A DNA stretch of 64,000 bases. Source: Armatimonadota bacterium. Lineage in GTDB: Bacteria; Armatimonadota; HRBIN16. Made by a program: the position numbers and the translations under genes. Where the stretch lies: assembly GCA_963677485.1 (NCBI GenBank), contig OY781964.1:5024001-5088000 (forward strand), given 5' to 3'. The stretch's first letter is position 1. Each line of letters begins with the position of its first letter. Below the pieces are notes generated by a model. It was given only the letters and a program-made list of their open reading frames with translations. It had not been told where the DNA came from and did not search any database. Positions 27,816-64,000 of the stretch are shown one piece after another.

Positions 27816-29978
27816 ATGTCAAAATGCCGATCTATTCTCACCGCGTTGGTGCTTGCCTTATCTACATCCGCCGTAATGGCCGCGCCGTTCTTGGAGCCTG
27901 TGCCCACATCGCAAAAGGAGATCGCTCTCCACTGGTCCGAGATAGATGCCAAGGCATTGTCAGTGAAGCTCTTCCGCAACGACGCCTTCATCGGGGAGTT
28001 CCCAGCCACCAGCCGCACTTACCGCGACCAGTCGGTGGATCCAGGCACTCGATACACATACCGTCTGACAGCCGCTCTACCGGACGGTAAAGAGCAAAGC
28101 GTCAGTGAGACAGTGACCAGCCTTCGCGATGTGCTTCCCACCCGGAACTACCAGTTGGTGGTTATAGGGGGAACAGCCTCGGGAGTTGGTGCCGCGGTAT
28201 CGGCAGCTCGGCAAGGGGTTCATGTGGCACTGATTGAACCATCGGATCGCCTTGGCGGCATGATCACTAACGGTGTCTCCGCCACTGACATGCGGAAGCC
28301 AGCCCGCAGCAACGGCTTGTTTGATGAGATCCGCCAGCGCGTCCAGAGCTATTACGGAACTGGCAACGGCTTAAGCTACGAACCCAAGCTCACATGGAAG
28401 ATCGTCCGCAGTCTAGTAGACGAACAGCCGCTGATCGATGTGTTCTCCCGCATGAGCTACCACAGTGCTAAGCACCAGGGTCGTACGGTCACCTCCATCA
28501 CATGCAAGGACCTCAGCACGGGTAAACTCACCCGGTTCACCGCAGATCAGTTCGTAGATGCCACCATTGAAGGCGATATGCTGGATGATCTTGGGGTATC
28601 CAACCGAGTGGGACGAGAGGCACGAAGCCAAGAAGAGCCCCATGCAGGTTTCATTCACTACGACCGGTTCAAGGATGAGATCACTCCACCCAGCACAGGA
28701 AAAGCCGACAAGACGATCCAAGCTTACAGCTTCCTGCTGCCTTTGAAGGACTACGGTGCCGGTGCTGATAAAAGCATCCCAGAACCTCCGTTCTATGATA
28801 AAGCAAACTACCAGCACACGACCGCATGGAAAGAGACCTGGGCCTATATGTACGGACGGTTCCCTGGCGGTAAGTTTGAGATGAATCAACACCCTCAAGG
28901 CAACGACCTTCAGGAGATCAACTTCAGATACCCCTGGATGTCAGAGAAACAACGGGCGGGCATGACCGACCGCTTCCGATGGCATGCGCTGGGATATCTT
29001 TACTACCTGCAGACCGAACAGGGACTCAAGCAACTCGGCCTGGCCGATGATGAGTATCCTGAGAATGGCCACATCCCAAACAGCCTGTATGTCCGTGAGG
29101 CCAGGCGTATCGTGGGCGACTTCATGTTAAACGAGACTGACGTTGCGGACGCCAGAAAGCGGCTGCGCCCCGACACAATAGGTATCGGCGACTACCCCAT
29201 GGACTCCCATGCTATTCACAAGAAGACCGACTGGAGCACGACCGATCTTGGCGAGGGCGAATATTGGCTGTACCGCCAAACCCCTTGGTACCAAATTCCA
29301 TTTGGTGTGATGCTGCCCCGAGAGCTGGATAACCTGATGGTCACATCCGCCGTATCCGCCACCCATGTGGGATATGGAACCTTGCGCATGGAACCCGTCA
29401 GGATGGCCATGGGACAGGCGGCAGGCATCTCCACTGCAATGGCGATTAACGGCGGCAGGAAACCGGCTGAGGTCTCGTTAGAGCAGCTTCAGCGTAAGCT
29501 GGTCGAAGCCGGTGTGTATATGGGTTGGTTCAGCGATGTGACCGCAGAAACTCCGCGTTTCTGGGCGATTCAGGAGCTGGCCGCTAAAACCGTGTTGACG
29601 GATGAGGAGTTAAAGCCACAGCAGCCGTTAGTATATGAAGAGATGATCCGATGCTTATACAAAGCGATGGGTTTCGGGTATGAAAAACAAGCCAGAGGTT
29701 ATCTACAACCTAAGGATGACATCTTGCCTGAACAAGAGTCTCAGCTCATGTCGCTCTTCACAGGCCCCATCTTGAAGTCCGATACTTACAGCTCTGCGCA
29801 GCTTGTCCCCATCATGAGGCGGGCCGCTAAAGCGAAAGGTCTGAGCGCGAAGGCGACCGACTGGGCACTGATGCCGATAGCCACATCGGAGGGAGTCATC
29901 ACGAAAGAGCAGTTCTACGCCAGCCTCGCGCTGATTTTACGAGGAACAAACAGCGGGGCTATCTACCCTCAGAAGTGA
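27816..29978 (+). CDS. Exported FAD-dependent oxidoreductase with N-terminal Fn3-like domain
   Basis: Signal peptide; Fn3 YTYRLTA; VVIGGTASG, VDATIEGD, YVREARR, GDYPMDSH, SATHVGYGTLRMEP. Confidence 0.85.
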   Translation: MSKCRSILTALVLALSTSAVMAAPFLEPVPTSQKEIALHWSEIDAKALSVKLFRNDAFIGEFPATSRTYRDQSVDPGTRYTYRLTAALPDGKEQSVSETVTSLRDVLPTRNYQLVVIGGTASGVGAAVSAARQGVHVALIEPSDRLGGMITNGVSATDMRKPARSNGLFDEIRQRVQSYYGTGNGLSYEPKLTWKIVRSLVDEQPLIDVFSRMSYHSAKHQGRTVTSITCKDLSTGKLTRFTADQFVDATIEGDMLDDLGVSNRVGREARSQEEPHAGFIHYDRFKDEITPPSTGKADKTIQAYSFLLPLKDYGAGADKSIPEPPFYDKANYQHTTAWKETWAYMYGRFPGGKFEMNQHPQGNDLQEINFRYPWMSEKQRAGMTDRFRWHALGYLYYLQTEQGLKQLGLADDEYPENGHIPNSLYVREARRIVGDFMLNETDVADARKRLRPDTIGIGDYPMDSHAIHKKTDWSTTDLGEGEYWLYRQTPWYQIPFGVMLPRELDNLMVTSAVSATHVGYGTLRMEPVRMAMGQAAGISTAMAINGGRKPAEVSLEQLQRKLVEAGVYMGWFSDVTAETPRFWAIQELAAKTVLTDEELKPQQPLVYEEMIRCLYKAMGFGYEKQARGYLQPKDDILPEQESQLMSLFTGPILKSDTYSSAQLVPIMRRAAKAKGLSAKATDWALMPIATSEGVITKEQFYASLALILRGTNSGAIYPQK

Positions 29979-31806
29979 TGCGGTAGACTGCGTTCTTGCC
30001 GAACCGGGCCTGCTCTTGCAGCAGGCCCTCTTTTTTGGCCTGCTCCAGCAACTGCCGCCATCGCTCCGTATGGCTTTCATTCACCACCAGGCGCTCATTC
30101 TGCCACACCCACTGGTAACCGTGCTGTAGGAGCCACTGACAGAGCTCAGAGGGCTGTTTCATATCATCGTAGGGTATCAAAGTGTGGTGCCCAGGATTCG
30201 CCCAGATCAGTTTGCGGTTCAGATAGAATACACGGGTCTCATCATACACCGCCACACCGTCATGTTCTGGGGTGTTACTATCTATCCACTCGCACGCTTT
30301 GAAAGTACCTCCCCCATATTGCTGAAGGTAGCTGTCGATAGAGCTTTGGTTTGTCAGCACGAGGATTGACGCGGCCAGTTTGGGCATGATGCCCCCAATG
30401 AACACCAACATCTGAGATAGAACTATAACCGGCATCAGCCAGCGTATCAGCCCTCGCTCGGTATCATGCACCTTGACGGCAGCCAGTATCACCGCAGGGA
30501 ACAAGAACACAAGATACCGTATCTGCTGCATCTGGAAAAACCAGGCCACCCAGTTGAGGCCAATGAACAGCCAAACCGCTCTGCCCGCGGTATTCCAATG
30601 CTTCCAAAACACCAGCGTGAATAGAACCAGCAGACCAAACAACCCCGAACTGCCCACCAAAGGCATGGGATCGATAAAACGGTCATAGTCGGTCACTAGC
30701 CTGATCGGCGAAAGCACAAAGTCGAGGGCAGACCGTCCAAAGCCGAACGCCTCCTGTGCCTGCCTGTATAGGAGGGCGTTCTGAGCACTCCAGTCATGCC
30801 CGCCAAAAATGCCGTAGAAATACGGGTAGAACGGGTTGCCTGTGTAGATCAGCGTTTTGAGGTACCATCCCCCACCAATCAGCACTGAGAGCCCAACGGC
30901 TCCACCAAGCCATCGCCATCGATCTTTCCACGTAAGGCAAGTACAGCCCAGCATCAACGAGATAGCGGTGATGGGCAGAATGCTCACAGCGGTCATCTTG
31001 ATTCCCAGTGCAATGCCTGCCACGACTCCACTCAACACGGTCCAGATGAGGCGCTCGCGTGCGTCGCTCTGTAGAGCTAGATATCCTGTGATCGCAAACC
31101 AGCAGATCGCCAGGCAAAAAGCGATGTCCAGATAGGCCACACCAGCTTCCCATGCAAACAGCGGGATGGAACCTAACAGCAGTCCACTCATCATCTGTGC
31201 CACGGGGCTTAGCTTCATACGTCGCGCCACTACCCAGATCGTGTATACGCAGAGCAGCCCACAAAACCAGTGAAACAGCTTGGCTCCGATCGCACCGGCA
31301 CCGACTCCCAACGACCACAGGTACCACATCTCTACTGTGAATGGGAAGTTGCTGTGATGGTCATACGGCACGTAGTGGATGATTCCGGAACGTAGAAACT
31401 CAAGCGGTATGGCCAGATGGTAACTGAGACCATCCCAGTCATCGCCAATCGGCATCATCAACACGATGGGCAAGATAAGGAGAAGAGGCAGTAGACCCGC
31501 CAGTAATGGCCAATAGCCGCGCCAGCCGACCGAATCCGATTTGACGCCATCAGACCGGCGCAGCCACAGCACGTTCGGCACCGAGAATACGCCCACTACC
31601 AGCCACAAAGCCGCTGCGGACAACTGACCGCACAACCCCATCACTAGTACCACCAGGCTGAAAATCCCTGCGGTACACAGCCAGGCTATAGGGAGCAGTT
31701 CATAGAGGCGGGTCGTTTTGAAGTGATAAGATCGCAGGATGGCCATCCCGCTGAGTGCGAAAACCAGTATTGGTATCAGCGCAAGCAGTGGATGCCCTAT
31801 ACTCAC
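29959..31806 (-). CDS. Polytopic membrane protein, GT-C (ArnT/PMT-like) glycosyltransferase
   Basis: More than 10 TM segments; first-loop DWDGLSYHL, SNFPFTVE, TGNPFYP, RYLVF; periplasmic WIDSNTP domain. Confidence 0.75.
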   Translation of the reverse strand: MSIGHPLLALIPILVFALSGMAILRSYHFKTTRLYELLPIAWLCTAGIFSLVVLVMGLCGQLSAAALWLVVGVFSVPNVLWLRRSDGVKSDSVGWRGYWPLLAGLLPLLLILPIVLMMPIGDDWDGLSYHLAIPLEFLRSGIIHYVPYDHHSNFPFTVEMWYLWSLGVGAGAIGAKLFHWFCGLLCVYTIWVVARRMKLSPVAQMMSGLLLGSIPLFAWEAGVAYLDIAFCLAICWFAITGYLALQSDARERLIWTVLSGVVAGIALGIKMTAVSILPITAISLMLGCTCLTWKDRWRWLGGAVGLSVLIGGGWYLKTLIYTGNPFYPYFYGIFGGHDWSAQNALLYRQAQEAFGFGRSALDFVLSPIRLVTDYDRFIDPMPLVGSSGLFGLLVLFTLVFWKHWNTAGRAVWLFIGLNWVAWFFQMQQIRYLVFLFPAVILAAVKVHDTERGLIRWLMPVIVLSQMLVFIGGIMPKLAASILVLTNQSSIDSYLQQYGGGTFKACEWIDSNTPEHDGVAVYDETRVFYLNRKLIWANPGHHTLIPYDDMKQPSELCQWLLQHGYQWVWQNERLVVNESHTERWRQLLEQAKKEGLLQEQARFGKNAVYRITSEGR

Positions 31807-32564
31807 AGCTCGGTATCCTTCACCCGTCGGCAGCTCCAGCTCACGATTTCGAGACGGTCGGTATCATAATCTAGAATGCCCAGGTGCTGTCCATACTTGC
31901 CGGTGTGTAGTATATAACTGCTGCCGACCTCTATGGGCTCCGAGCTCATCGTGTGGTCGTGACCACCTAAAACTAAATCGACACCCAGTTGCGCCACAGC
32001 CCGGTCATCGGCCGTACCGATATGGGTCAGGGCAACCATTATGTCGCACTTTGGCCGGATCACGGGGATCATATCAGCCGCAGTTTCCACAGCAGGTGTC
32101 ACCATCCAGGCACTCACAGCCCTCAAAAGAGGATTACGATCCAGCATTTTTTCTGTGATCATCTCCTCCATCAGCCCCATGATACCAAACCGCACACCCA
32201 TCCGCTCAAGGACAGTGAAAGGTGCCACCACAGGGTTTGTATTACGTTTAATGGGAAGCACATTGCTGGCCAGAATTGGGAATGAGGCTCCCCTGTGCTT
32301 CGCTTGTAACCCGCTACGACTATAGTGAAACTCCCGATTACCGCAGACCATGGCATCATAACCAGCGTGGCTCATTTTGCCGAGGATCGGTTCAGGCAGC
32401 ATGTTCCATGTGATGTTACTGGCAGTGATCGCATCCCCTGCGTCAAGAAGTATGAAACCTTCGGGATTCGGGGCTGTTTCACGCGCTTTTTTGATAGCAC
32501 GCTGCAGGGCGATCGGAAAATGACCGTGCAAATCGCCGGTCAAGCAGATGCGGATGATTGGCAT
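31803..32564 (-). CDS. Stand-alone calcineurin-like metallophosphoesterase (UshA/5'-nucleotidase N-domain-like)
   Basis: GDLHG, DAGD, GNRE, LTHIG, GGHDH motifs; no signal peptide and no C-terminal substrate domain. Confidence 0.85.
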   Translation of the reverse strand: MPIIRICLTGDLHGHFPIALQRAIKKARETAPNPEGFILLDAGDAITASNITWNMLPEPILGKMSHAGYDAMVCGNREFHYSRSGLQAKHRGASFPILASNVLPIKRNTNPVVAPFTVLERMGVRFGIMGLMEEMITEKMLDRNPLLRAVSAWMVTPAVETAADMIPVIRPKCDIMVALTHIGTADDRAVAQLGVDLVLGGHDHTMSSEPIEVGSSYILHTGKYGQHLGILDYDTDRLEIVSWSCRRVKDTEL

Positions 32565-32569
32565 ATAGG

Positions 32570-33130
32570 TTATTGCACCTTAGGGAGGCTGTTTGGATCA
32601 TAGGTAAACAGGCGAATGATTTCATCCCAATAGCCGTTGGCTTTGAGAAGAACCTCGGCGATTTCGCGCATCCCGCCGTTGCCGCCTTCGGCTACGGTGA
32701 CGTAATCCGCCAAAGCCTTCACCTCAGGTGAGGCATTTGCCACAGTGAATCTGACACCAGCCTCGCGGAAGGCTGACAGATCGTTCAAATCATCGCCTAC
32801 ATAGGCTACGGCACCGGCATCTACCCCTAACTCATACATGAGTTGAAGTAATCGAGTGCCCTTATCACCTACCCCCATCAGGCATTGGTCAAAATGGAGG
32901 TCGCTGGCTCGGCGAGCGACAGATCCGTCTGAACGGCCGGTCATCACCACTAACTGGTATCCATACCGCTTCAACAGGTTCAGACCAAGCCCATCGCGTA
33001 CGTGGAACGCCTTAATGAACTGGCCGTCCGGTGAATAATAGAGCATGGAGTCAGAGAGAACGCCGTCGACATCCGTGACCAGAACCTTCACGCGCCGCAG
33101 ACGGTCCAAAAGAGCTTGAGTAATAGCCAA
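32570..33130 (-). CDS. kdsC: Kdo 8-phosphate phosphatase (HAD family)
   Basis: DVDGVLSD, KAFHVRDG, YVGDDLND, GGNGGMRE. Confidence 0.92.
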   Translation of the reverse strand: MAITQALLDRLRRVKVLVTDVDGVLSDSMLYYSPDGQFIKAFHVRDGLGLNLLKRYGYQLVVMTGRSDGSVARRASDLHFDQCLMGVGDKGTRLLQLMYELGVDAGAVAYVGDDLNDLSAFREAGVRFTVANASPEVKALADYVTVAEGGNGGMREIAEVLLKANGYWDEIIRLFTYDPNSLPKVQ

Positions 33131-34105
33131 CTACACGATACCCGTACGAAGAAGGTCTTTTAACATCAACATACCGATCGGTTTGCGCTGGTGATCCAGC
33201 ACTGGTATTTCACCGATCTTTTTCGACAAGGTCTCCATCAGGCTTAGTGCCTCGACTGCCAGAGGATCACCCTCAATCACGGAAGGGTTGACGGTCATCA
33301 CCTGCTCCGCTCTCAGGGTCAGTGTTTTATCATTAGATAGAAGGAATCGTCTGATGTCGCCATCCGTGATCAGTCCCGCCATCTTGCCATCTGTATCTAA
33401 GACACAGGCCGCTCCTGCGTTCGCTTCCGTGATGGCGAAAAGAACATCGCGAACTGGCTGTCCGCACTCCACAACGGCCACGGCATCGCCGGTACGCATC
33501 ACGTCGCTGACATGCAGCAACAGACGCCGTCCCAGACTCCCTGCCGGGTGAAACACCGCAAACTGGCTTTCTGAGAATTCGCGGGCACGCATAATGGAAA
33601 TGCTAAAGGCATCACCCATGACCAGCATCGCTGTGGTGCTGGCGGTGGGAGCGAGATTGAAAGGGCAAGCCTCGCGTGGTACGGAGATATCTAGTATCTC
33701 ATCCGCGGCCAAGGCCAGGGTGGACTCTAGTCGCCCTACCATCGCGATGATCTTGGCACCGATACGCTTAATGGTAGGTAGAATTGCCAATATTTCGTCT
33801 GTTTCACCGCTGGCTGAAAGTATAAATACCACATCATCCTTGGTGACCATACCAAGGTCGCCATGCACCCCTTCTGCAGGATGCAGGTAGAAGCTGGGCG
33901 TTCCGGTGCTGGCAAGGGTGGCGGCTAGTTTGCGAGCGATCGCTCCTGACTTACCCATACCGGTGGTCACCACGCGTGCTGTACAACCTAACGCCATCTT
34001 GACAGCGTGTTCAAACCGGTCGTCTACGCGTGGCAACAATCCATTTATACCCAGAAGCTCAGTTTCGATCACCTCTCGGCCATAGTCGGAAATCTTAGTA
34101 CTCAT
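33131..34105 (-). CDS. kdsD: Arabinose-5-phosphate isomerase (KpsF/GutQ, SIS plus CBS)
   Basis: GMGKSG, HGDLG, APTASTT, FHPAGSLG, ITDGDIRR. Confidence 0.95.
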   Translation of the reverse strand: MSTKISDYGREVIETELLGINGLLPRVDDRFEHAVKMALGCTARVVTTGMGKSGAIARKLAATLASTGTPSFYLHPAEGVHGDLGMVTKDDVVFILSASGETDEILAILPTIKRIGAKIIAMVGRLESTLALAADEILDISVPREACPFNLAPTASTTAMLVMGDAFSISIMRAREFSESQFAVFHPAGSLGRRLLLHVSDVMRTGDAVAVVECGQPVRDVLFAITEANAGAACVLDTDGKMAGLITDGDIRRFLLSNDKTLTLRAEQVMTVNPSVIEGDPLAVEALSLMETLSKKIGEIPVLDHQRKPIGMLMLKDLLRTGIV

Positions 34106-34111
34106 ATTCGG

Positions 34112-34477
34112 TTATACGTTCTCGTCTCTATCAGTGTCACGTTGAGCATCTGTGGATGCGTCAAGACGCGGCAGTGTCTCAAGTGAGTAGTGAAAATGAA
34201 GCATTTCGTCAAGAGAGATCGGCCCCATATTGGCTTTGGTCAGCATCTCTTCAGGGTCCATCTCACGGATTTCGTGGCGTAGAATCTTCTCATCCCATGC
34301 CTCTAGCCGGATGAAGCTTTCGCCCAATCTACGGCACCGACTGCACCGGAAGCGGAGATAAACATACGTGGTATCGACACGGCGGAGCTGCGTCCCTTTA
34401 TGGATGACATCTCCTTCAAATATTCGTTGACCGCAGGAACAGAATACACCAACTTTTACGTCCTGAAAATCTTCCAT
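34112..34477 (-). CDS. Small hypothetical protein with CxC and CxxC motifs
   Basis: ATG 34477 follows GGGAGGGG; FCSCG...RCSRC; ends 6 nt before kdsD. Confidence 0.65.
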   Translation of the reverse strand: MEDFQDVKVGVFCSCGQRIFEGDVIHKGTQLRRVDTTYVYLRFRCSRCRRLGESFIRLEAWDEKILRHEIREMDPEEMLTKANMGPISLDEMLHFHYSLETLPRLDASTDAQRDTDRDENV

Positions 34478-34639
34478 GGCACCCCTCCCTGCTTCGGTGG
34501 TTGATATCATCAGCGACTCACTGCACCGAATTCTGAAGCATTTCGAGACAAAATCTCCAAATGCCACCATATTGAGTATACAGAATGAGCAACATACCGG
34601 CAAACCGGCAGAGATTGTAAGCACGAAACGAGATTGTAC

Positions 34640-35164
34640 TTAAGGTTGACCTGGCCGATACGGCTTGTTTCGACCCATCTTCTCGTCGCGCGACGTAGGC
34701 ACATAGAGTTCCGGCTCTTGGATGATCCTAAAAGTATATAACTTTCTCAGCCAGTCATCCTTAGTCAAACCGCCTATTACTGTCTTCGTGTTCACATCGA
34801 CGATAAAATAGCCAGGTCGTAATTCACGATTGGTTAATGGGAATTTGTTTTGCTCATCTCGGTATTTTGGATGAGGGCTCACCTTTCCTATGATAGCATT
34901 TGAAAACACACGGTATCCCACTACATTCGGACCGACCGCGAACCTGCCAAAAGGTGGAACCGTCTTAAAATCCATGTTTTGTATCCATACTTCGTCAAAG
35001 TGTTGCATGAGCCGAAATCCGCCAGGTAAATTAAAGCCATATCGATTCATCAGATTCCACATGACCATATAACCCATGAACACCAACATCAGAGCCGAAG
35101 CTGAAGCGACAATGACTGTGAATACCGGTATGCGCCTTCGTTCCTTACTACTTTCTGCCGTCAT
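34640..35164 (-). CDS. Hypothetical single-TM protein
   Basis: 174-aa ORF with GGAGG RBS and an N-terminal TM segment. Confidence 0.6.
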   Translation of the reverse strand: MTAESSKERRRIPVFTVIVASASALMLVFMGYMVMWNLMNRYGFNLPGGFRLMQHFDEVWIQNMDFKTVPPFGRFAVGPNVVGYRVFSNAIIGKVSPHPKYRDEQNKFPLTNRELRPGYFIVDVNTKTVIGGLTKDDWLRKLYTFRIIQEPELYVPTSRDEKMGRNKPYRPGQP

Positions 35165-35181
35165 GATTTGGGTAAGCCTCC

Positions 35182-37992
35182 TTATGAATACGGCGGTACC
35201 ATCAGCTTGATATAAAGCTGCGTAGAGTCATTATCCATCGATCCGATGGAATCCAAAACAAAATCCACTGCCGATCCGACCCTAATTGCACTCAGCTCAC
35301 AGAGCAACGGATGCGGCTTGTCGTCCTTCGCTTCCAACTCCCATTTGCGAATGCCATCAACGAAGACCGATAACCGCACACCATCACCCAGCCCGTTGTT
35401 CTGCACGGTCCCCTCAACGCGCAGTCTACCCGAGACGGTGCTGACCCATCGCTTGACGGCAGCCTGTTTGTCAGAGGGGTGCACGCTCATAATCGCAGCA
35501 TGGGGATATGGGCTCTCCACACCAGCCACCCACCGACCCGGCTCATACCGACGCATAACCGTAAAGGAATCAGTCCGGTAACGGCCACTTCGGACCTCGC
35601 GGTTTCCGAGCATGCCATACCACCAGCCATTGAGTCCTTGTATGCCATCATGGCTCCACCCGGTGACGAAATCCGCCACACAGTCCCACTGATGCTTCCC
35701 GTCCACGACCACACCGCTTGCCAACGGGCCTGTCTTCACCATAGCACCGGCCTTGTGATCGGGATCATACACCAGGTTGCCTTCTATCCGTGCGTTCTTT
35801 ACGACACCAAGAAAAATCGAGGCATCCGGCAGATCACCGCAGGTCGTGGCAAACGCACTGCCAAACCCCTTCCAGTCAGCCGCATGAAACGGCCGGTCGA
35901 TGATGTTATCCTTGACGATCAGCCCATCCATATTGGTGATGTAGATCGGCACACCTCCGGGGGTTTCGATGTAGTTGCCTTTGAACAGCATGTTGCGTAT
36001 GGGTGTAGAGCGCCGCAGGTAGTTCCCTCCACTTGGCACCATCACGGACATGACGGCACCTTGCAGATAGGCATCGCTGGCAGCGGCTCCGGTAGAGCAC
36101 CCCAACATGCGGTTGTTAATGAACCTGTTGTCGTTCGCAAACTGGCCTTCCGTCATCGGCCCCCAGGTTTCATAGTGAATCTCCAGACCGTGCATCACAT
36201 TCTGAAAAGTGTTGTATTCGACCAGGCCACCAGAGGCACCATTCAGCAAGAACGGCCTGTTGAAGCAGTCATGGAACCAGCAGTTGCGCACCACGAAGCC
36301 CTCGCAGTTCAAGCTGTGGGTGTCGATCAGTGTGCCCACGGGCAGATCGAGGTCGCGGTCCATTGTCACCTCCCAGACCTCGCTGCTGTGGGCGTGTTCC
36401 ATGCGTTTAAGTTCACTCAGCACCTGCTCGCTCTGCACGCTATCTGTCACACGCCGTGTCCGAATGACAGTAGCCGCGCCGAGGTGTTCTACGCTGCGCC
36501 AGTCCCAGAAGTCCATCTTCTTTTTAGTCTTGAATGGGCCATAGGACGCCGCAAAGTAATACTGGTGGGCTGATACCCGCTGAGCGACGATACCGAAGAA
36601 GCCGTGCAGGTTGATGTGGTCATCTGCCAGGTGAGCGACTTCACAGCGGTCGATGGTCGGCCCCTTCTCGGTTGCGGTCATATGAAACCCATCGGCGCCA
36701 AAAGCATGAAGCCGGTTGGTACCGGGGCGTCGGACGCCGTGCAAACGCCGGTACACATTGCCCCCGGCACCCCCACCCTCCATGGCCATCATGCCGCCGC
36801 TGGCATAGATATTGCAGTCTTCATAGACGATGCTTTCGCATTCAATAGTGCGTAATGCGGCTCCGGTGCGGATGGGAGCCGCCAGGTAGTCGCCTACGGA
36901 AACCCCAGGTGCCGGTGTCTCAAACTCAATTCGATTATTATGGCCAATGCGATGCCAGCTCTTGCCCAACAGATAGTTGTTGATGAAGCTGCCGTCTTGA
37001 TGGAAAAAGAGGATGACCCTCTGCCCATTATCTTCAGGTATCCCATCAGCATTACGCGGTTCATGCCCTGGCATGATCTCAGCTGTGACGCGTTCATTTG
37101 GTGCATCAATATGAAGAACGCGTGCTTGGAAAAATGGCAGCGGATCGAAGTCGATGGTCAAGCCACGGAAGGTGAGGTTTTGGCATTTGCGCACCAGTAA
37201 CCCCCAGATCAGTGGAGGTTCCATCCAAAAGGTGGCGCCTGATGCCTCAATCTGCAGATCATGCACGCCTTCAATGATTGGGCAATCGGGGTCCCATCCC
37301 GCTCGATAGCGATAATCGCCAGCAGGTATGTGGAAAGTTTTGATCTTTTGGTCAGAGGCGCGCTTGATCTGCAGCAGAAGTTCTTTGCCAGCTTCACGCT
37401 GCGTTTGCTTCTGCGAATCCGTAAACTGAGGGCCGATCGGTAAGTCGGGACGCCAGGCCGTGCAGGTTTCGGACACTATCTGCAGTTTCCAATCGACTTT
37501 CACGACCGCTTCTTTCGATTCGGACACCGCCACCAGATCAATATCAGCCAATTTCGGTAGATCCACCAGCAGCACATCATAAGCATGTGGGATATAGTCA
37601 TCTTCGGCAAGCGTCCGGCTCCACGCCAGCTGCCCATCACGATAGATGCGGAAACTCACCGCACCCCGAGTGCTTACCGCTTTTGCGAGCCAGCCGACAA
37701 GCCGCACACTGCCAACCCGATCGGCTGTCCATCTGCGCACCGCAGCCAAGCAACCACCGTCTTTCCAGATCGCAGTCTGGCTATCACGTCCCAGTTGGAG
37801 CTGCCGGTATTTCGGCGTCATCCATACATCGGCACGACGGTTCTCAAATGGAGTAAATGGCTCCATCCGCCCATCGTCAGTAATATGCGCCACCCCATAA
37901 TGCCAACCCCGATGGGACTGAACGGCACTGAAGTCAAGCGTCGAATCAGCAATGGCGTCATCAAATCCAACGACACGGTCTCGAAATCGCAT
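35182..37992 (-). CDS. Right-handed beta-helix protein, GH110-like, flanked by duplicated beta-sandwich modules
   Basis: GLTIDFDPLPFFQARV, ADGFH, ADDHINLHG motifs; similar N- and C-terminal modules. Confidence 0.7.
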   Translation of the reverse strand: MRFRDRVVGFDDAIADSTLDFSAVQSHRGWHYGVAHITDDGRMEPFTPFENRRADVWMTPKYRQLQLGRDSQTAIWKDGGCLAAVRRWTADRVGSVRLVGWLAKAVSTRGAVSFRIYRDGQLAWSRTLAEDDYIPHAYDVLLVDLPKLADIDLVAVSESKEAVVKVDWKLQIVSETCTAWRPDLPIGPQFTDSQKQTQREAGKELLLQIKRASDQKIKTFHIPAGDYRYRAGWDPDCPIIEGVHDLQIEASGATFWMEPPLIWGLLVRKCQNLTFRGLTIDFDPLPFFQARVLHIDAPNERVTAEIMPGHEPRNADGIPEDNGQRVILFFHQDGSFINNYLLGKSWHRIGHNNRIEFETPAPGVSVGDYLAAPIRTGAALRTIECESIVYEDCNIYASGGMMAMEGGGAGGNVYRRLHGVRRPGTNRLHAFGADGFHMTATEKGPTIDRCEVAHLADDHINLHGFFGIVAQRVSAHQYYFAASYGPFKTKKKMDFWDWRSVEHLGAATVIRTRRVTDSVQSEQVLSELKRMEHAHSSEVWEVTMDRDLDLPVGTLIDTHSLNCEGFVVRNCWFHDCFNRPFLLNGASGGLVEYNTFQNVMHGLEIHYETWGPMTEGQFANDNRFINNRMLGCSTGAAASDAYLQGAVMSVMVPSGGNYLRRSTPIRNMLFKGNYIETPGGVPIYITNMDGLIVKDNIIDRPFHAADWKGFGSAFATTCGDLPDASIFLGVVKNARIEGNLVYDPDHKAGAMVKTGPLASGVVVDGKHQWDCVADFVTGWSHDGIQGLNGWWYGMLGNREVRSGRYRTDSFTVMRRYEPGRWVAGVESPYPHAAIMSVHPSDKQAAVKRWVSTVSGRLRVEGTVQNNGLGDGVRLSVFVDGIRKWELEAKDDKPHPLLCELSAIRVGSAVDFVLDSIGSMDNDSTQLYIKLMVPPYS

Positions 37993-62627: not shown

Positions 62628-64000
62628 CTATTCTATGATTCGTCGACCATCGTACGATGGTGAGATACTCTTTTTATTCACTATCGCTTGAGCCAGACTG
62701 TCTCGGGCGTCTTTAGCGACAACCTTGCTTTGAAGCTTCAGTTGGTCGCAAATGATCCCTCCGAAATAGCTATTGGTGCTCACGTGGTATATCTTCTGGT
62801 CATCCACTGCTGTGCCATTCACGGTCAGCTCTTGCAGCACACCGGCTTTCATCCGGTAACGGGCTCCAGAAGCGGCAGGGGTGCCGGTAGCGATGACCTT
62901 GGCCAGTTGCAGGCCGGTCATATCGATGGTGACCAGTGAGTTCGTCCAAGGGATCAGACGCGCCAGGTCATAGCGTGACACCGCCCCTTTGCATAGATAC
63001 GCCCGTACGCCGCCCATGTTTTCCAGATGCACATCGGTTCCCAGCAACTCCCGTGTCAAGTCGGCCACCATATAGTATGGCTCCTCGTCATTGCCGCGGG
63101 GCACAAATGAATCGGTGGCAATGCCTATATTGTCCATATAGTAATTCCGTAGTTTACCCCATGCCTTATCCACCAGTTTGGCGATAGCCTTATCGGCGGG
63201 TACATCCTCAGTCACCGGGATGAGTTTTCCGGTCACTGCCATCAGACCCCAGCCATCATCATTTCGGCGCAGCTTCATCTCAACACAGCCCAGTTCCTGG
63301 CCCCACTGACCAGCTTGCACAATGTAGGTTCCGTTGGTCTTGCCGATAGATGTGATTTCGCCCTTACGCACTACTGTGGGTTGTGCTAAACGTGTGTGTG
63401 AGTGGCCGCCAACGATGACGTCAATACCGTCCACCTGGGCCGCTATCTGCTGATCAACATCATACCCACAGTGGCTCAGAAGTACCACCACATCGGCTTG
63501 CTTACGTAGCTCAGGCATCAACTTCTTGGCGGTTTCGATTGGGTCTAGAATGTCTACAGTGTCTTGTGCTAACTCGTAGGTTCTGGCGTCAGTCGTCAAT
63601 AACCCCAATATCGCGACCTTCACTTCACCGGCTTGTTTGATGATGTAGCTTTTCACTACCGGTTGTGTGGTGCCTTTGGCTACCACGTTGGCATCGACCA
63701 GTGGGTATTTCGTAGCCGCCACCAACTGGCTCCATATATCTTTGGGTTTCATCTCATGGTTGCCAAAGCATTCGGCGGTATAGCCAACAGCATTCATGGC
63801 AGCCACATCAACCAGGCCATTGAAGGCGATGCTGAACGCGGTACCATCGGTGTAGTCACCGGCATCCAGCAGCCATGTATCGCCGAACCGCTTTTTGACC
63901 TGCTGGAATACAGTGGAGCGTCGGGCGATGCCCCCCAAAGTGATCACACCATCTTTTACATATGATGATAGCTCAGGCATGGTTTCTGCGGGAGTGTTGA
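62628..64000 (-). CDS. Bifunctional metallophosphatase/5'-nucleotidase; 5' end outside the window
   Basis: GGIARR, LDAGD, GNHE, LSHCG, GGHSH, NMGGVR. Frame is open to the window edge and the first DxH motif is missing. Confidence 0.9.
   Translation of the reverse strand, partial: NTPAETMPELSSYVKDGVITLGGIARRSTVFQQVKKRFGDTWLLDAGDYTDGTAFSIAFNGLVDVAAMNAVGYTAECFGNHEMKPKDIWSQLVAATKYPLVDANVVAKGTTQPVVKSYIIKQAGEVKVAILGLLTTDARTYELAQDTVDILDPIETAKKLMPELRKQADVVVLLSHCGYDVDQQIAAQVDGIDVIVGGHSHTRLAQPTVVRKGEITSIGKTNGTYIVQAGQWGQELGCVEMKLRRNDDGWGLMAVTGKLIPVTEDVPADKAIAKLVDKAWGKLRNYYMDNIGIATDSFVPRGNDEEPYYMVADLTRELLGTDVHLENMGGVRAYLCKGAVSRYDLARLIPWTNSLVTIDMTGLQLAKVIATGTPAASGARYRMKAGVLQELTVNGTAVDDQKIYHVSTNSYFGGIICDQLKLQSKVVAKDARDSLAQAIVNKKSISPSYDGRRIIE

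Follow-up and report, generated by a model that had tools for sequence, protein, structure and literature searches.

A UshA-type metallophosphoesterase as a candidate for the missing step-4 enzyme of lipid A synthesis in Armatimonadota and other phyla

The DNA analysed here, called the window, is a stretch of 64,000 nucleotides from an Armatimonadota bacterium (assembly GCA_963677485.1, contig OY781964.1, positions 5,024,001 to 5,088,000 of the forward strand). It encodes a small metallophosphoesterase (MPE) in which an Arg occupies the position of the catalytic His. Judged by its sequence and gene context, this protein is on balance probably a UDP-2,3-diacylglucosamine pyrophosphatase, the enzyme of step 4 of lipid A synthesis. 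The assignment would be somewhat more probable for a sister subfamily that resides in lpx clusters, and less probable for the window's own subfamily, to which the function is assigned through homology and linkage to kds genes. The evidence is about evenly balanced for a broader reading, in which these proteins would form a fourth class of UDP-2,3-diacylglucosamine pyrophosphatase, recruited independently from the UshA/5'-nucleotidase N-domain and convergent with the His-to-Arg replacement of LpxH. The class would serve several mostly uncultured phyla devoid of LpxH, LpxI and LpxG, and one of its branches stands beside, or is fused to, the LpxB-like protein TIGR03492. The distribution of the family suggests that a step-4 role would span Armatimonadota, Eremiobacterota/Vulcanimicrobiota, Xenobia, some Melainabacteria and others.

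The MPE is proposed as the missing step-4 enzyme because of a gap in the lipid A pathway of its host, the occurrence of a related subfamily in lpx operons, the fusion of that subfamily to TIGR03492 and the displacement of LpxI. A preliminary description of the window, made from the DNA letters, had already named the protein as a candidate for this step; gene context and phyletic pattern, namely the lpx-operon sister subfamily, the fusion and the exclusion of LpxI, now support it.

The window protein

The gene, its two diagnostic codons and a 5'-nucleotidase that serves as an internal control are positioned in the window as follows.

31803..32564, minus strand: single-domain UshA-type MPE, 253 aa, motif GNREFH, candidate UDP-2,3-diacylglucosamine pyrophosphatase
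32334..32336, minus strand: codon CGG of Arg77, at the position of the catalytic His in GNH(E/D); the plus strand reads CCG
32325..32327, minus strand: codon CAC of His80, at the position of the Asp in the UshA His-Asp dyad (GNHEFD versus GNREFH)
62628..64000, minus strand, running past the window end: conventional secreted 5'-nucleotidase with GNHE (genome 5086628-5088139, 503-aa frame)

The ATG of the MPE gene sits five codons after the upstream stop. The N-terminus opens with the first metal-binding strand, MPIIRICLTGDLHGH, and runs straight into metal motif I (LTGDLHGH, residues 8-15), leaving no room for a signal peptide. In Pfam the protein matches PF00149 (Metallophos) alone, over residues 4-205 and with 32.5 bits (cut-off 21.5). 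The C-terminal domain of 5'-nucleotidases, 5_nucleotid_C (PF02872), was not found in it by Pfam, and the polypeptide stops at residue 253. The preliminary description had taken the protein for an MPE domain alone, with neither a signal peptide nor a 5'-nucleotidase C-domain, and this view is borne out. Its reading of the Arg codon is equally correct: the coding strand at 32342-32331 is GGT AAT CGG GAG, which encodes Gly75-Asn76-Arg77-Glu78. The 5'-nucleotidase at the window's edge, which has a hydrophobic N-terminus, keeps GNHE as had been stated.

The MPE carries the DxH, GD, GN, H and GHxH motifs by which members of the calcineurin-like superfamily bind two metals. Its matches in NCBIfam are partial and far below cut-off. 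They are to the N-domains of SoxB, UshA-like proteins, UshA (model NF007109, E=3.9e-17) and CpdB; no LpxH model is among them, and the LpxG model NF033458 gives no match at E<=0.01. When a profile of the family was searched against the Protein Data Bank (PDB), it aligned with residues 8-292 of E. coli UshA, with deletions only, at E ~1e-33. CD73 is matched at E ~1e-33 as well, and there is no LpxH chain among the 39 PDB matches. In the profile alignment Arg77 falls on the catalytic His of UshA and His80 on the Asp of GNHEFD. Over its full length, the Atlas model of a homologue, P0018 (pTM 0.94), superposes on N-domains from 5'-nucleotidases of two domains with a TM of 0.87. By its sequence, the MPE is a cytoplasmic enzyme of the UshA branch without the C-domain.

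Conservation of the family

All of the 30 homologues retrieved by word index and HMMER (237-337 aa) have Arg77 and read GNRE.H. A scan of one genome per species yielded 236 relatives; the best 80, mostly from Armatimonadota, make up a set of 81 loci together with the window. The residues D11, H13, D44, N76, H181, H202 and H204 are each kept in 81/81, His80 is kept in 80/81, and Arg77 in 81/81, although this last count is partly circular because one of the two fetching patterns contained GNREF. An unbiased phmmer search covered 1.84 billion representatives, and its best 150 matches were analysed. GNR occurs in 76 of the 79 short proteins (<=330 aa), 62 of them with GNR..H, whereas 64 of the 71 long proteins have GNH and two have GNR..H. 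Thus the Arg accompanies the loss of the C-domain. Its family-wide conservation shows that Arg77 is not a chance replacement, and conservation of GNR in orthologs, which the preliminary description had named as a check, is found in all three samples. One long 5'-nucleotidase/SoxB-like protein (P0147, 536 aa) reads GNREGH, so that the Arg-His pair is also present, rarely, in the two-domain form.

Since an Arg replaces the His of GNH, the protein could be imagined to be catalytically dead or regulatory. This is barely credible, because every metal-ligand position is retained in the 81 loci and because LpxH is fully active despite the same replacement (PMC5016852).

The lpx-cluster relatives align with the window protein end to end with 32-37% identity, and every motif residue is common to both. 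A FastTree of 60 rows, a rapid tree made without bootstrap in which several rows have an unusual composition, splits 40 GNR proteins from 20 GNH N-domains (local support 95). On the GNR side, the Armatimonadota type (17 rows, support 97) and the lpx-cluster type, to which the fusions belong (23 rows, support 95), are sister groups. The short GNREFH MPEs, of about 230-275 aa with relatives to 337 aa, are a distinct monophyletic family that consists of the N-domain only and stands apart from the GNH 5'-nucleotidases.

The sister subfamily in lpx clusters

The most telling relative is P0068, one of the two long GNR..H proteins among the phmmer matches. Its 650 aa join a GNREFH MPE to an entire TIGR03492 'lipid-A-disaccharide synthase-related protein' (305 bits, cut-off 219). 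Two further fusions, P0181 (56% identity) and P0182 (39%), were found, each with 99% query coverage; the fusions measure 640-653 aa. That three fusions have diverged down to 39% identity indicates that the fusion is old and maintained. At two loci of the 81-locus set (L063 and L084) the TIGR03492 gene directly follows that of the MPE, and these two, together with L043, have the order lpxA>lpxB>..>MPE.

The association was followed in 80 TIGR03492 loci, taken from 572 relatives found. A short MPE of the GNR type is encoded in 26 of the 80, on the same strand and with its end -7 to +45 nt from the TIGR03492 start, and GNR was seen in 25/25 of these MPE loci where the region is present. The gene order is lpxB>MPE>TIGR03492 in 17 of the 26, of which 11 read lpxC>lpxA>lpxB>MPE>TIGR03492, mostly followed by msbA. 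Five have lpxD>MPE>TIGR03492 with lpxB and lpxA divergent, and four show just the MPE-TIGR03492 pair. One locus assigned by hidden Markov models (HMMs), L197, reads lpxC, fabZ, lpxA, lpxB (190.0 bits against a cut-off of 190.25), MPE and TIGR03492, and continues with lptC, lptB and lptF/G. The genomes with a cluster MPE include Vulcanimicrobiota/Eremiobacterota, Xenobia, a Melainabacteria metagenome-assembled genome (MAG) and 'Bruticola'.

TIGR03492 itself has several notable features. In many of the 80 loci (Bacillota, Eremiobacterota/Vulcanimicrobiota, the Melainabacteria MAG) its gene has lpxB, msbA or both as neighbours, and the cyanobacterial loci have no lpx neighbour within the flanks examined. 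At L043, L084, L215 and L216 a second, weakly LpxB-like stretch separates lpxB from the MPE or from msbA; this could be a gene in its own right or an artefact produced by the 430-aa query. The idea that TIGR03492 is the true LpxB of the MPE-bearing genomes was discarded, as G226 and G228 also carry a canonical LpxB. A literature search, which did not cover subscription journals, found no publication on the GNR MPE family or on TIGR03492, nor any that describes a fourth step-4 enzyme of this type.

The DISPLACEMENT test covered the genomes of 50 of the 80 TIGR03492 loci, namely all 26 with an adjacent MPE and 24 of the 54 without one. LpxI is present in none of the 26 genomes with a cluster MPE versus 16 of the 24 without an adjacent MPE. 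The eight comparison genomes that lack LpxI are five cyanobacteria (G522-G526), G506, G520 and G529. LpxH was found in none of the 38 genomes searched for it, which include all 26 with a cluster MPE. The genomes of this comparison are MAGs without known completeness, in which the lpx cluster itself lies on the contigs examined. In two Bacillota, G516 and G514, the gene order of this cluster is lpxC..lpxA-lpxI-lpxB-x-msbA-TIGR03492. The MPE and LpxI thus replace each other within one conserved lipid A cluster.

The gap in the lipid A pathway

The host genome is a single 5.22-Mb contig, 97% complete. Its lpx cluster (4444703-4452779) contains lpxD, lpxC, fabZ, lpxA, lpxB, msbA, a gene for a 225-aa DUF374-like protein and waaA; lpxK lies apart, at 3101387. 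The waaA gene was assigned by position and by similarity to a complete relative, G001, and the 225-aa protein was matched to the DUF374 protein of G001 by position. With lpxD, lpxC, lpxA, lpxB and lpxK found, the host has the lipid A genes without which the earlier proposal would have had little meaning. The known step-4 enzymes, whose presence would have made a new one superfluous, are a different matter: LpxH (TIGR01854, cut-off 190 bits) has no match anywhere in the host genome at E<=0.01, and LpxI (PF06230, LpxI_C) has none either. TIGR03492 was not found in the host genome. The DUF374 protein, which is positioned between msbA and waaA, was considered as the missing hydrolase and set aside because it is acyltransferase-like. 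In G001 the corresponding cluster reads bamA-skp-skp-lpxD-lpxC-lpxA-lpxB-msbA-DUF374-waaA-lpxK-GT4-kdsB-kdsA, and the Kdo2-lipid IVA genes missing from it are step 4, kdsC and kdsD. At the MPE locus of G001 kdsD adjoins the MPE and kdsC does not.

The same gap runs through the phylum. In a sample of 121 Armatimonadota genomes, 119 have LpxC, whereas LpxI was found in 0/121, and neither LpxH (weak match in eight) nor LpxG was found above cut-off in any of the 121. The GNR family is present in 84 of 101 Armatimonadota genomes at E<=1e-40, and at least 79 of these 84 have a match of >=180 bits in a frame shorter than 450 aa.

There are 15 metallophosphoesterase loci in the host genome, and GNR is found at the window MPE alone. 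Two of the other loci encode YaeI/LpxG-like proteins, which reach 127 and 89 bits on the LpxG model NF033458 (cut-off 350) and score equally or better on YaeI. Their N-termini, judged by eye, are hydrophobic and could be membrane anchors. The better of the two is the following.

Genome 3857105-3858037: YaeI/LpxG-like MPE, 310 aa, with GNHD and GHTHGGQ, downstream of gatB; 127 bits on both NF033458 and YaeI

Step 4 could be performed by this protein, in which case the GNR protein would do something else. The 310-aa protein has all the motifs and a possible membrane anchor, and chlamydial LpxG is a membrane-associated MPE with GNHD and GHXH (PMC4807358). Nevertheless, its score on YaeI equals that on NF033458 and is far under the LpxG cut-off, which no protein of the 121 genomes exceeds, and its gene follows gatB rather than an LPS gene. 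Furthermore, the LpxG model is unspecific at this weak level, because it also matches proteins of B. subtilis, Lactococcus and Deinococcus, which were used as controls and are not known to have lipid A. The YaeI/LpxG-like protein is therefore an improbable holder of step 4, and the window MPE is preferred.

Two more host proteins have unusual residues at the GNH position. The second YaeI/LpxG-like MPE (genome 2461549-2462424, minus strand; locus L016, 1270-2133, minus strand) reads GNTE instead of GNHD and lies downstream of what by eye appear to be a methyltransferase and a GT2 glycosyltransferase of the polyprenyl-phosphate type. A second protein that comprises only the UshA N-domain is encoded at genome 558042-559049 on the minus strand (locus L008), in a frame of 335 aa with a hydrophobic N-terminus. 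It reads GNNE and GGDSH instead of GNHE and GGHSH and could be a secreted paralogue whose active site has changed.

Gene neighbourhood in Armatimonadota

The window MPE is the third gene of a tightly packed row, kdsD-kdsC-MPE-GT-C, whose other members are listed here.

33131..34105, minus strand: kdsD, arabinose-5-phosphate isomerase, SIS and two CBS domains (TIGR00393, 313 bits)
32570..33130, minus strand: kdsC, Kdo-8-phosphate phosphatase, YrbI family (TIGR01670, 124 bits, cut-off 107)
29959..31806, minus strand: GT-C membrane glycosyltransferase, 615 aa, PMT_2 / LIC_10190 family, GTG start

The kdsD gene abuts kdsC, the last base of kdsC is 5 nt ahead of the MPE start, and the GT-C start overlaps the MPE stop by 4 nt. 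The adjacency of kdsD and kdsC had been recognized earlier; the TIGR00393 and TIGR01670 models confirm both genes, which lie directly upstream on the same strand. Both genes are single-copy in the genome, and kdsA and kdsB are located elsewhere. A scan of 29500-35600 for promoters and terminators gave counts close to those expected from shuffled sequence, and no operon boundary could be drawn from it. Directly upstream of kdsD, on the minus strand, there are two open reading frames (ORFs) without a Pfam match, at 34112-34624 (170 aa) and 34640-35164 (174 aa). The former bears CxxC pairs resembling a zinc ribbon; a small zinc-ribbon-like ORF is also present upstream of the MPE in 12 related loci.

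ORF clustering of the 81 loci, many of which end at contig ends, placed kdsC upstream of the MPE in 44, kdsD in 37 and a GT-C gene downstream in 57, all on the same strand. Linkage to kds genes, seen at a single locus at the outset, thus extends to orthologs. The GT-C gene often overlaps that of the MPE by 4 nt. In 13 loci a GT2 of the polyprenyl-phosphate type (by eye) lies downstream, and two tandem GT-C genes follow the MPE in many Armatimonadota loci.

Evidence against a step-4 role and the rival readings

A number of observations weigh against the proposal. First, the tightest neighbour of the MPE in the window's own subfamily is GT-C (57/81) and not an lpx gene. Second, 19 of the 121 Armatimonadota genomes have no family match at E<=1e-5, and LpxC is present in every one of these 19, LpxH and LpxI in none. 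The presences within families are 0/8 in f4, 0/4 in f9 and 0/4 in f31, and one f28 genome also lacks the MPE. Two of the f4 genomes have kdsC followed by a long membrane protein, presumed to be a GT-C (no HMM check), and f9 and f31 have kdsC alone. As these MPE-less genomes have LpxC, another step-4 enzyme must exist in the phylum. Third, the complete 3.1-Mb chromosome of an Armatimonadota member, G005, keeps a divergent GNRESH copy without conserved neighbours (locus L089). A search of G005 found no LpxC, LpxB, LpxK or KdsC, so it may be a phylum member without lipid A. Fourth, a true LpxI (155 bits) is encoded beside lpxB in G225, a complete genome from another phylum that also contains a module of kdsC, MPE and double GT-C. 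The kdsC of this module is the genome's sole kdsC, and the GNR family occurs in one of 251 sampled genomes of that phylum. The GT-C part of the G225 module is a 1212-aa protein (L078, 6816-10454, plus strand), apparently two fused GT-C units.

The complementarity with LpxI is confounded by kinship, as the genomes represent few lineages and not 50 independent cases, and five cyanobacterial genomes (G522-G526) have TIGR03492 without LpxH, LpxI or an adjacent GNR MPE. Weak matches to YaeI/LpxG-like MPEs are present in 116 of the 121 Armatimonadota genomes. Finally, an LpxH-like lipid-binding lid, which the preliminary description had raised as something a structural model might reveal, did not materialize: neither the family profile aligned with UshA nor the Atlas model of P0018 has a helical lipid-binding insertion of the LpxH type, and there is no extra domain.

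Some of these observations would be explained if the MPE were an LPS-related phosphoesterase that serves the downstream glycosyltransferase, GT-C or TIGR03492, and takes no part in step 4. Its task might be to remove UDP or a UDP-sugar, or to act on some other intermediate that is phosphorylated or linked to a nucleotide. The frequency and closeness of GT-C, the GT2 of the 13 loci and the adjacency or fusion to TIGR03492 agree with such a role, as do the coexistence of LpxI with the module in G225, the f4, f9 and f31 genomes that manage without the MPE, and the G005 copy that persists without lipid A genes. However, GT-C and the LpxB-like GT-B are unrelated, and what their contexts have in common is lipid A/Kdo synthesis. 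GT-C enzymes use polyprenyl-phosphate sugars at the outer face, and a soluble cytoplasmic pyrophosphatase therefore has no obvious role beside them. TIGR03492, for its part, is absent from the host genome and persists without the MPE in LpxI genomes, which makes the MPE the piece that varies with LpxI. A glycosyltransferase-serving phosphoesterase is thus an unlikely reading, though the main rival.

It is very unlikely that the MPE has a housekeeping role in the cytoplasm, as a nucleotidase or a hydrolase of nucleotide sugars, and that its operon position is incidental. The UshA-type catalytic domain, the lone divergent copy of G005 and several loci without conserved neighbours would fit this explanation. 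The distribution of the family is, however, narrow and lineage-specific, as its near absence from the phylum of G225 illustrates; it resides repeatedly within kds or lpx operons, is fused to an LpxB relative and has lost the nucleotide-binding C-domain.

Taken alone, the GT-C linkage, the MPE-less families and G225 would make the step-4 role rather unlikely; the fusions and the lpx-operon subfamily raise it to its present standing.

Proposed mechanism

The substrate and mechanism are those that we infer from the residues, family membership, gene contexts and phyletic patterns observed. The two-metal centre would be held by D11, H13, D44, N76, H181, H202 and H204, and a metal-activated water would attack the alpha-phosphate of UDP-2,3-diacyl-GlcN. 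Arg77, aided by His80, would grip the beta-phosphate, the future 1-phosphate of lipid X, in the manner of LpxH Arg80. The C-domain of UshA supplies Arg residues, and Arg77 and His80 may stand in for those that were lost with it. The products would be UMP and lipid X, the latter to be condensed by LpxB with a second UDP-diacyl-GlcN. The acyl chains could be held by the TIGR03492 protein, by the membrane surface or by an active site that is wide open without the C-domain. A bolder variant, in which the MPE and TIGR03492 together carry out steps 4 and 5 in another order or as a single channelled unit, is very improbable.

Significance

Step 4 is the step of the Raetz pathway that is known for being performed by non-orthologous enzymes. 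In whole phyla that otherwise encode the pathway, no enzyme of this step has been recognised: there is none in the 121 Armatimonadota genomes and none in the 26 genomes with an lpx-cluster MPE. If the proposal is true, it would improve the annotation of LPS synthesis in diderms of the Terrabacteria type and would provide a second, independent case of a His-to-Arg switch that adapts metallophosphoesterases to pyrophosphate substrates. It also draws attention to TIGR03492, an unstudied LpxB paralogue of lpx clusters. The candidate is directly testable by the type of complementation screen that found LpxG. The three Armatimonadota families without the MPE and the five cyanobacterial genomes without an adjacent one imply that the list of step-4 enzymes is still incomplete and that at least one further solution exists.

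Comparison with known step-4 enzymes and UshA

For step 4, the 2025-2026 reviews name LpxH, LpxI and LpxG alone (PMC13018214, PMC12444477), and the former describes the three as targeting different phosphates (PMC13018214). The MPE and LpxI (PF06230) have unrelated folds, but fill the same kind of slot in lpx clusters; they are mutually exclusive in the 26 and 24 genomes of the TIGR03492 loci, although G225 has both. TIGR03492, the uncharacterised partner that adjoins or is fused to the sister subfamily, is absent from the window's host and present in LpxI-bearing Bacillota and in cyanobacteria without an adjacent MPE.

LpxG (Chlamydia CT461; NF033458) is also an MPE and sets the precedent for an independent recruitment of such an enzyme to step 4. 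The report on it describes a Mn-dependent, membrane-associated MPE that replaces LpxH where LpxH and LpxI are absent, with a mass of about 37 kDa, an N-terminal transmembrane helix, GNHD and a GHXH motif (PMC4807358). Unlike LpxG, which keeps GNHD and the transmembrane helix, the window MPE has GNRE and an N-terminus that leads straight into motif I.

UshA, the UDP-sugar hydrolase after which NF007109 is named, has a homologous catalytic N-domain. It cleaves UDP-sugar into UMP and sugar-1-phosphate. The window MPE differs in having no signal peptide, no C-terminal substrate-binding domain and GNREFH instead of GNHEFD, and in being a cytoplasmic protein, by prediction, that is encoded in Kdo/lipid A operons.

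LpxH (TIGR01854), the pyrophosphatase found in beta- and gamma-proteobacteria, differs from the window MPE in descent. The latter is not a sequence member of TIGR01854, has no helical insertion to form an acyl-chain cavity, comes from the UshA/5'-nucleotidase branch and carries a His at the position of the UshA dyad Asp. Okada et al. 2016 regard the His-to-Arg replacement as unique to LpxH among metallophosphoesterases. They describe how Arg80 contacts the lipid X phosphate, which is the beta-phosphate of the substrate, through a bidentate salt bridge, while the alpha-phosphate rests on the metals (PMC5016852). Yet both are cytoplasmic calcineurin-like MPEs that are found in genomes without LpxI, both have an Arg in place of the catalytic His of GNx(D/E), and the reaction proposed for the window MPE is identical to that of LpxH.

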